From the sequence record PP763253.1: DNA of 64,000 bases, one strand, 5' to 3'. The position numbers were made by a program, and so were the translations under genes. How positions within the stretch are numbered: position 1 is the first letter of the stretch; the number at the start of each line of letters is the position of its first letter. Under the pieces are notes generated by a model, which was given only the letters and a program-made list of their open reading frames with translations, was not told where the DNA came from and ran no database searches. Below are positions 30,831 to 32,678 of the stretch, piece by piece. This DNA comes from Acinetobacter phage Ab1-TPeters.

Positions 30831-32144
30831 ATGAATAACCGTATCAACCTAGTATTAAGCGTAGCTCGTGATTCAGACATCCGCAAGACTACCAATGGGG
30901 AAGTAACTAACATCGGTTTATATAATTTTAGATTCAAAGAGCCTGTTCCATTTGAGGGTGGATTATTCTGTCAAAAGATTTTTGGGCCAATCAAAGACTA
31001 CACTTGTGCATGCGGTGCACGTAAAGGTGGTAAGACAGTTGATGGTAAAGCACCATCTTGCGAGATCTGTGGGGTAGATCTAGTGAAGTCTGAGGTTCGT
31101 TCAAAACGTGAAGGTTATATTGATGCGAAAGTACATTATGTAAATGCATATGCAATGCCACTCTTGGGTGCAATTCTTCAAATTGGTGAGGGTAATATTG
31201 AAGGAATATGCAATGGTACTATGTATTTCCGTTTTAAAGAATCAATGAACGGTCTTCGTTCAATGTCTGGTAAGTTTTATTCAATTGAGCTATCAAAAGA
31301 AGACAAGACTTGGGGTACTTCTGCTGAGGAGCTCCTGGATGCAATTCAAGATCTTGATTTGGATTCTGCTTACATTATGAAGAACTGCAATAGCCGAGAC
31401 GTGAATCGCTATCACGATAAGGGTTACACTATTTCAGACTTCTTCTGCTCTCACGTGCGAGTGTCCCCTCCACGTACTCGTGATATGTCCGTAGTAAATA
31501 AGGATATATCATTTCACCCAGTAAACAACATCTACGCTCGTATCGTTCGAATTGGAGCACGAGTAGCAACTTTAACCAACCAGATTCTGGAATATGATGG
31601 TGAGTTAAACTTAGAGCAATTAAAACAAGTGATTCGTGGTGAATCAATTGTGCTCCAAGCGCTAATTGATGCCTTGTTGTTTAAAGGAGCTACAGATTAC
31701 CGTGGAAATGAGATTCCATCAGTTATCTCTTCACTTGGAGGTAAGGAAGGTATCGTCCGTGGTAACTTACTGGGTAAACGAGTTGACTTCTCTGGTCGAT
31801 CTGTGATCATTTCCGGACCTGAACTTCCGTTAGATACAATCGGTGTTCCTTGGAAAATGATGTATGAGTTGCTTAAGCCGTTTATTCTGAATAAGCTAAT
31901 TGAGCATCTTGAGGATCTTGATGGTATTTTAACCAGCCAGACTTTGAAGAAAGCTCGAACTATGTATGCTAACAAGAGCACAGAAGCAATGATGTTTATG
32001 CGAGAGTTAGCAGACAGACACTGGGCATTCTTGAATCGTGCACCGTCACTTCACAGATACTCAGTAATGGCGTTCAAAATACAGCTTCACAGTGGTAAAG
32101 CAATTAAGCTGCCACCTATGCTTTGTTCACCATTCAACGCGGAT
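30831..32144 (+). CDS. multisubunit RNA polymerase beta-prime subunit, N-terminal half, exon 1
   Basis: Zinc-binding CACG...CEICG region aligns with E. coli beta-prime C70-C88; [18 protein letters not shown] aligns with [36 protein letters not shown] aligns with LLNRAPTLHRLGIQAFEP; exon ends ...PFNAD, the first three residues of the catalytic NADFDGD motif. Confidence 0.85.
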
Positions 32145-32504
32145 TAATCCCAAGCAGAGTCCGCCCAGATTAGAAATGATTTGGACAAAAACTTCCTTAA
32201 TTGCTGGAACGTCCTTAATGGATAATCAGCAGCTGGGTTCAATTATGAACAGAGTTCAACGACTATCGAAAGCCGATTTAGAGTGGGGACAATCTAAATT
32301 GAAGCAAGTAGAGTACAGCCAAGCGGTAGGTTGTTACGTGGAATGGCGTAACAATAATTCCTTTAAATGGAAACAGGAAGACCTAATCACTGTAGACCAC
32401 AGTGTAAGGATATGAGATAGTCTCAACGTTCTATAGTAATATAGAGCAGTGTTTATAGCCAATAAACACGGTCGTAAGCTAGCGATTTACGATGAAGATA
32501 ATTG
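32145..32504 (+). other. group I self-splicing intron (ORF-less, 360 nt)
   Basis: 5' exon ends in U32144. Internal guide GUCCGC (32159-32164) pairs with exon GCGGAU, with a U-G wobble at the splice site. P7 halves CAACGACUAUCG (~32256-32268) and GAUAUGAGAUAGUCUC (~32409-32425) form GACUA/UAGUC. Terminal G at 32504 sits immediately before exon 2, which encodes FDGDQMAIH. Confidence 0.8.
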
Positions 32505-32678
32505 TTTGATGGGGATCAAATGGCAATTCACCTTATTCTTAGTTGTCAAGCAATGGATGAAGTCGAGTTCATTCGTGTTCAGAACAACCGTATGAATTCT
32601 ATTAACTGGGATACACCTTTACTCGCTCCGAGCCATGAGCAGATTGTGGGCTTACTTGAATTAACTTTGGGCGAATAA
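32505..32678 (+). CDS. RNA polymerase beta-prime N-terminal half, exon 2
   Basis: Translates FDGDQMAIHLILSCQAMDEVEFIRVQNNRMNSINWDTPLLAPSHEQIVGLLELTLGE; aligns with E. coli [55 protein letters not shown]; stop at 32676-32678, so the subunit is split here. Confidence 0.8.
   Translation, partial: FDGDQMAIHLILSCQAMDEVEFIRVQNNRMNSINWDTPLLAPSHEQIVGLLELTLGE

Follow-up and report, generated by a model that had tools for sequence, protein, structure and literature searches.

Phage-encoded multisubunit RNA polymerases (RNAPs) are known in two forms, the divergent, fully split enzymes of the phiKZ/AR9 type and the intact β and β' pairs of the mReC phages. In jumbo phages, β' is split after the double-psi β-barrel, a position that coincides with the split found in cyanobacteria (PMC7598289, Sokolova review). 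The mReC phages are tailed phages, the β' of which is ~30% identical to the bacterial subunit and keeps the NADFDGD motif (PMC7481178, Weinheimer and Aylward 2020). Here, we analyse a 64-kb stretch of DNA from Acinetobacter phage Ab1-TPeters (PP763253.1, 64,000 nucleotides; hereafter the window), which corresponds to about half of the phage genome. A gene located at 30831–32678 on the plus strand encodes the N-terminal half (β'-N) of a phage bacterial-type RNAP β' subunit, which is split and the coding sequence of which is broken by a group I intron. We assign to this overall explanation a probability of roughly 0.75.

Comparison with described systems

The closest counterparts are the β'-N genes of the Escherichia phages EP_H11 (WBU87656, 522 residues) and vB_EcoM_IME392 and of the Ralstonia phage RP13 (ORF144, 517 residues), the products of which are orthologues, 39% identical to the window protein over 98–99% of its length. 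They feature the same end point and the same replication-module neighbourhood, and EP_H11 also shares the open reading frame (ORF) found upstream. In contrast, these genes are uninterrupted, and the gene in the window carries a group I intron within the catalytic motif. The gene for the C-terminal half (β'-C) is located 1.6 kb upstream in EP_H11 and 2.7 kb downstream in RP13, whereas none is found within 30 kb on either side in the window. The host also likely differs, that of the window phage being probably Acinetobacter. In the Rhizobium phage RHph_TM30 (Kleczkowskaviridae), a fused β' (gp334, 1127 residues) occupies the same position, is preceded by a member of the upstream-ORF family and is 36% identical to the window protein over the N half. 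Unlike its counterpart in the window, it is a single polypeptide, has no insertion at the clamp-helix tip and is free of introns.

EP_H11, IME392, RP13 and RHph_TM30 have been grouped with YerA41, Carin-5 and SP-15 because they have a special DNA polymerase in common; several of the grouped phages have been shown to contain hypermodified thymidine (PMC12686479, 2025). We found no published study of the RNAP of RP13, EP_H11, IME392, the RHph phages or the Kleczkowskaviridae. The gene itself is not new, as orthologues are annotated as β' in GenBank. What appears to be undescribed is the system as a whole, that is, a bacterial-like β' either fused or cut at one point, accompanied by a dedicated partner ORF, devoid of β and, in this phage, carrying a mobile group I intron in its catalytic codons.

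AR9 gp144, a virion β'-N, resembles the window gene in being split after the catalytic barrel and in carrying an intron in the same Mg-binding loop. However, AR9 possesses two full sets of split β and β' and uracil-containing DNA, its β' is far more divergent from bacteria, and it belongs to a different lineage. Of the hallmarks of phiKZ/AR9-type systems, the window features the split β', but neither a phage β, nor paralogous virion and non-virion sets, nor a jumbo genome with a phiKZ-like core (split family B polymerase). The window instead encodes a family A polymerase of 1069 residues, and its relatives range from 111 to 171 kb. The mReC phages differ in having an unsplit β' of ~900 residues, which is accompanied by an adjacent β of ~1000 residues in 77 of 80 loci and falls in a separate branch of a neighbour-joining (NJ) tree. 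In cyanobacteria and plastids, β' is likewise made of two polypeptides, RpoC1 (γ) and RpoC2, but these are cellular enzymes with their own β. Cyanobacterial rpoC1 encodes ~620 residues, so that the exact break point differs from that in the window.

The gene encodes the N-terminal half of β'

The unspliced ORF (30831–32147) encodes 438 residues and terminates in CSPFNAD. The frame is picked up again at 32505 with FDGDQMAIHL and runs to a stop codon at 32676–32678. When exon 1 (30831–32144, plus strand; 438 codons that cover the zinc-binding domain, the clamp helices, the lid/region C and region D up to SPFNAD) is joined in frame to exon 2 (32505–32678, plus strand; 57 codons and a stop, FDGDQMAIHL...PSHEQIVGLLELTLGE), a product of 495 residues is obtained. 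An intact NADFDGD catalytic loop with its three aspartates is formed only upon this joining, in keeping with the original prediction that splicing is needed to read the gene. The β'-N stop is genuine, being followed by a GGAGAG sequence, which provides a ribosome-binding site, and by the ATG (32689) of a new gene that is read in a different frame. When the fused Rhizobium-phage β' (1127 residues) was used as a probe, its residues 16–494 matched the two exons only, and no match beyond residue 494 was found in the window. Automatic gene calling yields the 438-residue exon-1 product alone, without two of the three catalytic aspartates. The exact exon-1 ORF has been recorded once (P0001), in the fragmented assembly of Logan sample SRR28813070.

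Membership of the β'/Rpb1 family, which had been proposed from the sequence alone, was confirmed by Pfam searches with the spliced protein. Both RNA_pol_Rpb1_2 (PF00623; 1.1e-33, 117.3 bits against a cut-off of 25.3) and RNA_pol_Rpb1_1 (PF04997; 6.9e-11, 42.5 bits against a cut-off of 39.7) were detected. BLASTP aligned the protein with residues 22–514 of Escherichia coli RpoC at 31% identity (E 5e-63). The zinc cysteines C59, C61, C77 and C80 correspond to E. coli C70, C72, C85 and C88, and the lid segment (RVDFSGRS) and the catalytic loop are in register with the E. coli subunit. The protein terminates at about E. coli residue 517, 53 residues after the last catalytic aspartate, as expected for an N-terminal half ending ~50 residues past the catalytic loop. 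Domains 3–5, which include the bridge helix and the trigger loop, are not part of the polypeptide and are encoded by a separate gene in relatives.

The prediction that the protein is much closer to the cellular subunit than those of jumbo phages are also held. Bacterial rpoC products match β'-N at E ~1e-57, with 30% identity over 98% of the protein, and the β' of YerA41 does so at 1e-28; none of the phiKZ-type records reaches 1e-5.

An insertion of ~5–16 residues is found at the tip of the clamp-helix coiled coil (residues ~246–262 of β'-N, window ~31566–31616). It occurs in the split-β' clade and has no equivalent in E. coli, in the fused RHph β' or in the mReC β'. The clamp-helix tip is the main σ-docking site of bacterial β'.

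A group I intron interrupts the catalytic loop

The two exons are separated by a 360-nt group I intron (32145–32504, plus strand), which carries no ORF and is inserted between the D and F codons of NADFDGD. It is the sole Rfam match in the window (RF00028; 66 bits, with a gathering cut-off of 50 bits; E 1.6e-14). U32144, the last base of exon 1, pairs with a G in P1 (exon GCGGAU, guide GUCCGC), and the terminal intron base is G32504. A 4-bp P10 may be formed between the first bases of exon 2 (UUUG) and CAAG of the P1 loop. Folding of the region gave a z value of -5.0 relative to 100 shuffled sequences. Only the spliced message encodes an intact active-site loop, and the intron would self-splice in vivo.

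A second interrupted gene was identified in the related locus L090 (JGI 3300045337; here and below, L numbers denote other loci used for comparison). Its β'-N, 48% identical to that of the window, carries an 872-nt insertion (L090 3493–4364) at the identical site, LNAD/YDGD. The conserved core blocks of the two introns succeed one another in the same order, and an identical 17-mer, AAGGATATGAGATAGTC, lies among them. The L090 intron contains a 204-residue ORF (3614–4228) in a loop that is only ~14 nt long in the window intron. No Pfam, PHROG or PDB match was obtained for this ORF, which may be a homing endonuclease, possibly of an unclassified kind; it begins with a Cys-rich segment. The L090 intron scores below the Rfam gathering threshold, presumably because of the 580-nt ORF insertion. 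Because site and core order are the same and the L090 copy has an additional ORF, these comparisons identify the window intron as the variant, free of an ORF, of a mobile intron directed at those codons of the gene that are most strongly conserved.

The intron core resembles those of the PBS1/AR9 introns, with 67–70% identity over the core. The virion β'-N of AR9 is annotated as three exons separated by two endonuclease-bearing introns. The AR9 intron similar to that of the window is inserted at GGDYD/GD, two codons downstream of the window site (NAD/FD), in the same loop but at a different point.

β' was divided within this lineage

In a large protein database, ~14 short β'-N proteins of 480–532 residues form a distinct clade with 36–48% identity, and bacterial β' proteins make up the next tier (~33%). 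When aligned together, the short forms all stop at E. coli positions 515–518, right after the PSHEQIVGL segment; two apparent exceptions are alignment artefacts. A matching clade is formed by ~25 β'-C proteins of 486–570 residues, which keep Rpb1 domains 3, 4 and 5. Gene order varies. In L091–L093, a β'-C of 504–511 residues is encoded 0.1–1.3 kb downstream of β'-N, whereas in EP_H11 and L099 β'-C is located just upstream. Seven phage β'-C probes, some of which match EP_H11 at 1e-108 to 1e-151, revealed no β'-C in the window. L098, which comes from another sample and carries β'-C, is probably the equivalent region of a close relative. We propose that β'-N would join non-covalently a separate β'-C of ~505 residues, as found in every relative for which enough sequence is available; together, the two would rebuild a full β' with clamp, active site, bridge helix and trigger loop.

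The single fused β' of RHph_TM30, located at the same position after DNA polymerase A, covers E. coli residues 26–1260. A crude NJ tree, which has no support values, places it as the sister of all the short forms and assigns bacteria and mReC phages to branches of their own. As the fused β' is both syntenic with the short forms and their sister, β' was cut into N and C pieces inside this lineage. The original prediction had likened the split to that of phiKZ-like and AR9-like jumbo phages. The likeness stands as to position, after the catalytic barrel, and extends to the cyanobacterial split, but it does not extend to descent, since a fused sister form exists in RHph_TM30 and the relatives are mid-sized myoviruses that possess a family A DNA polymerase and genes for thymidine hypermodification.

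Further features were noted in relatives. The β'-N of EP_H11 (L004 29676–31244) has NMDVDGD in place of NADFDGD, with the three aspartates kept and two near-invariant residues changed. Two lineage-specific families, neither of which is present in the window, travel with the β' genes. One, of ~420 residues and predicted to be mostly helical, is found in L091 (7697–8950), L092 (3473–4720), L093 (8017–9297), L098 (3971–5197) and EP_H11 (23475–24926). The other, of ~225 residues, always lies after β'-C and is found in L092 (8969–9658), L093 (13210–13884), L097 (2147–2815), L099 (2528–3190) and EP_H11 (28111–28797).

A likely upstream partner ORF and a bipartite motif

A 193-residue ORF (30243–30824, plus strand; ATG at 30243, alternative GTG at 30213) stops 6 nt before the β'-N ATG. 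Its family is rare, with only 12 representatives among 1.84 billion proteins. Members are located directly before β'-N in L090–L093, L099 and EP_H11, and a member also precedes the fused β' of RHph_TM30 (hhalign probability 94.9%; BFVD matches of 186–218 residues). Since the linkage is conserved across fused and split forms, the upstream ORF is likely a functional partner of β', and it may possibly act as an initiation factor. The predicted fold shows a weak likeness to σ region 4, and a Foldseek search against PDB gave no significant match. The earlier suggestion that this ORF could specify an RNAP-associated factor is supported by its strictly conserved linkage to β'; the fold evidence is weak and was not reproduced by a second method. 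The same suggestion had been made for the small ORFs downstream (32689–33042, 33063–33353 and 33356–33700) and found no support, as these lack domains and their proximity to β'-N is not conserved.

A terminator-like hairpin, read by eye (GGGATTC-TTCG-GAATCCC followed by a T-run; 29997–30021, plus strand), is located just after DNA polymerase A and marks the start of the intergenic region preceding the upstream-ORF/β'-N pair. This region contains two copies of a bipartite motif, CTGTnnnTTA-N14-CTGTT, at 30056–30084 and 30144–30172 (both plus strand), the latter 71 nt upstream of the upstream-ORF ATG. A third copy (33049–33077, plus strand) separates the first from the second of the small ORFs that follow β'-N. 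The motif occurs 10 times in the window (4925, 11205, 12712, 13129, 15510, 16889, 19636, 30056, 30144 and 33049; ~29 nt each), always on the plus strand and in intergenic DNA, against 0.75 matches expected, and none of 100 shuffled sequences reached 10. The two CTGT cores are exactly 24 nt apart and are often followed by a G-run. Among 100 other loci, the motif was found only in L098, in which one copy ends ~50 nt upstream of β'-C. The motif is a good candidate for a phage-specific promoter or operator serving both β' halves.

A second pattern, spotted by eye, consists of a TTGAAaCTCgcAAAT-like sequence ~10 nt upstream of a single sCTGTT core (window 1966, 7878, 17296, 20423 and 30030–30060, plus strand). 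It may represent a different promoter class that shares one half-site.

An apparent lack of β, and the possible nature of the enzyme

Searches with E. coli RpoB (tblastn, phmmer --max) were negative both for the window and for EP_H11, the genome of which (111 kb) is complete. Among ~40 of the largest EP_H11 proteins, Pfam searches detected domains of gyrase, transporter, glycosyltransferase, kinase and structural proteins, and in none of them an Rpb2 domain. The same RpoB query matches 80 phage records, including YerA41, Carin-5, AR9 and phiKZ-like phages, and none of ten RHph records that carry β'. A β profile hidden Markov model (HMM), built from E. coli and 75 phage β sequences, scores controls at E = 0; it detected nothing better than E = 0.7 in EP_H11, the window, L090–L093, 41 kb of RHph_TM30 and 19.5 kb of RP13. 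A positive control was provided by 80 IMG/VR loci recovered via the universal catalytic motif. In 77 of them, the β' of which is comparably divergent (~30% identity), β is found within 10 kb at E 1e-31 to 1e-81. These loci were considered as close relatives and rejected as such, being mReC-type or bacterial, and were used as controls only.

The three families of the β' cassette (200, 225 and 420 residues) gave an hhalign probability below 1% to β or β' and no sequence match in PDB, and the members scanned had no PHROG match. The structural model of the 420-residue family (predicted local distance difference test 39) is nearly all helical and gives no suggestion of a β-barrel; with too few homologues, it is unreliable. 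A single β'-N was found in the window, and one β'-N and one β'-C in EP_H11. The absence of β and β'-C from the window had been anticipated. The split β genes for which a scan of the rest of the genome had been advised may not exist, since the complete EP_H11 genome has no β. The best reading of these searches is that the lineage would encode β' without β.

Because no β is detectable, even though β' is as bacterial-like as in phages in which β is easily found, we favour, tentatively and at somewhat less than even odds, a hybrid enzyme in which the phage β' would dock on host α2β(ω) in place of the host β'. Both the split form of the window phage, EP_H11, IME392 and RP13 and the fused form of the RHph phages would then use host β. 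Such a hybrid might suit hypermodified-thymidine DNA, resist phage-made inhibitors of host β', or use the upstream ORF as a σ4-like specificity factor on the promoter-like CTGT-N24-CTGT motif.

Several points weigh against a split, spliced β' that works without a phage β. Absence of β was established in relatives, and about half of the genome of this phage lies outside the window. Its β'-C was not found in the window, and the five candidate β'-C proteins that were looked up all come from other samples. We infer splicing from the intron structure and the restored reading frame. A β of very divergent sequence could go undetected by profile searches. The literature searched provided no earlier example of a phage β' taking the place of the host β'.

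The remaining points of this kind converge on another explanation, a self-contained phage polymerase of the phiKZ/AR9/YerA41 type in which β'-N would work with a phage β'-C and a phage β encoded outside the window, in line with the original prediction. Genes for β and for a σ factor are present in YerA41 and Carin-5, two phages with the special DNA polymerase, and the virions of YerA41 contain RNAP subunits, so that a self-contained enzyme exists in a neighbouring lineage; GN1, with the same polymerase type, also encodes β (E 5e-21 for the three phages). Moreover, the break in β' follows the catalytic double-psi β-barrel, as it does in phiKZ/AR9 (PMC7598289), the virion β'-N of AR9 is broken by an intron in the same catalytic loop, and only 64 kb of the phage are visible. 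Yet EP_H11, which is complete, has one β'-N, one β'-C and no β, although the same probes find β in controls, and no RHph record matches RpoB. The protein is also nearer to bacteria than to YerA41 and matches no phiKZ-type record. The fused sister form indicates that the split was not inherited from a phiKZ/AR9-like ancestor, and the relatives are not jumbo phages. On balance, we regard a self-contained polymerase as doubtful, though a serious contender.

Non-working β' fragments, either a decoy that titrates host σ, β or regulators, or a captured rpoC in decay, would account for the lack of an encoded β partner in relatives. The lineage-specific insertion at the σ-binding clamp-helix tip and the variant NMDVDGD motif of EP_H11 would fit as well. 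However, the clade, which has diverged to 36–48% identity, retains the three catalytic aspartates, the zinc cysteines, the lid (RVDFSGRS) and NRAPSLHR, the intron is placed such that splicing exactly restores the motif, and β'-C keeps Rpb1 domains 3–5. The two pieces persist in ~14 and ~25 independent lineages, respectively. Kept motifs across a diverged clade and the persistence of both pieces indicate purifying selection on catalysis and make non-working fragments improbable.

Finally, a bacterial rpoC fragment brought in by contamination or misassembly, with a gap that is not an intron, might be suspected from the 31% identity to E. coli β' and from the good scores of bacterial rpoC deposited in 'phage' records, but was rejected with near certainty because the gene lies between phage DNA polymerase A and Pol X and the window shares synteny with EP_H11, the proteins most similar to its product come from phages (39–48% identity against ~33% for bacteria) and the gap is a bona fide group I intron.

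Phage context

The phage origin of the contig, as opposed to a chromosomal one, is evident from its gene content. Tail sheath, baseplate and tail spike genes, together with one for a DUF4815 protein, occupy the minus-strand half. In the plus-strand half lie genes for an NAD-dependent ligase, a thymidylate-synthase-like protein, primase, helicase, the family A polymerase and Pol X, followed in this account by nucleotide-sugar enzymes and an actin-like protein. The phage is a mid-sized myovirus of the EP_H11/RP13/RHph lineage of thymidine-hypermodifying phages, and the window carries the gene set characteristic of this group (PMC12686479), namely a large family A DNA polymerase, Pol X, NAD-dependent ligase and a thymidylate-synthase-like gene. 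In the fragmented Logan assembly of SRR28813070, sequence past the right end of the window contributes head genes only, and nothing is gained past the left end. More than 40 genes of the replication and tail modules are collinear with EP_H11 at 22–55% protein identity, and the family A polymerase, Pol X, ligase and thymidylate-synthase-like genes have EP_H11 orthologues at 33–46% identity. In EP_H11, a 6.7-kb block without counterpart in the window separates the polymerase from the β'-N pair. A megablast search with 12 kb around the gene found no close nucleotide match among 50,697 phage records. The genomes of EP_H11, IME392 and RP13 measure 111, 116 and 171 kb, respectively.

The tail spike (41775–43817, minus strand) is 61–62% identical over residues 104–679 to the spikes of the A. 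baumannii podophages AS11, PE21 and Fri1. For its receptor-binding part, capsule-degrading spikes of A. baumannii podophages are the only relatives in the phage collection. Together with a GC content of 36%, this suggests an Acinetobacter host. The likeness of the spikes also suggests module exchange between the myovirus and podoviruses.

EP_H11 carries a 5-hydroxymethyldeoxyuridine (5-hmdU) DNA kinase domain, for which the synteny table shows no homologue in the window. Cytidylyltransferase-like and HAD/phosphomannomutase-like genes lie side by side in the window (35964–37182, plus strand) and may serve DNA hypermodification, as proposed for YerA41 and Carin-5. The actin-like protein encoded next to them (37199–38140, plus strand) belongs to the ALP/ParM family (PF17989, PF21522) and has a homologue in the relative L092. 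The early/replication region (plus strand) encodes a NADAR domain protein, a DUF7217 protein, a Cas4-like exonuclease and a histidine-phosphatase-family protein among the genes at 8035–8508, 10163–10852, 23913–24644 and 136–834. At ~40600–41100, where the plus-strand replication block gives way, across an intergenic gap of 352 nt, to the structural block on the minus strand, both the direction of transcription and the sign of the GC skew switch. No tRNA genes were found in the window. EP_H11 also encodes a full BCCT betaine/carnitine/choline transporter (L004 8174–9556; Pfam 1.6e-91), which is unusual for a phage and has no homologue in the window.

Implications

The locus represents a third arrangement of phage multisubunit RNAP genes, in which a bacterial-like β', either fused or split at a fixed point, is accompanied by a partner gene and by no detectable β. 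We found no virus described in the literature as replacing a core catalytic RNAP subunit; if host β is indeed borrowed, this would be a new viral route to take over transcription. For annotation, the locus is a caution, as gene callers miss the spliced β'-N and report in its place a 438-residue protein short of two catalytic aspartates. The occurrence of an intron with and without an ORF at one site provides a clear example of an intron that homes into sequence essential to the active site. The existence of sister forms, one fused and one split, in turn offers a natural case of how a large catalytic subunit tolerates division.

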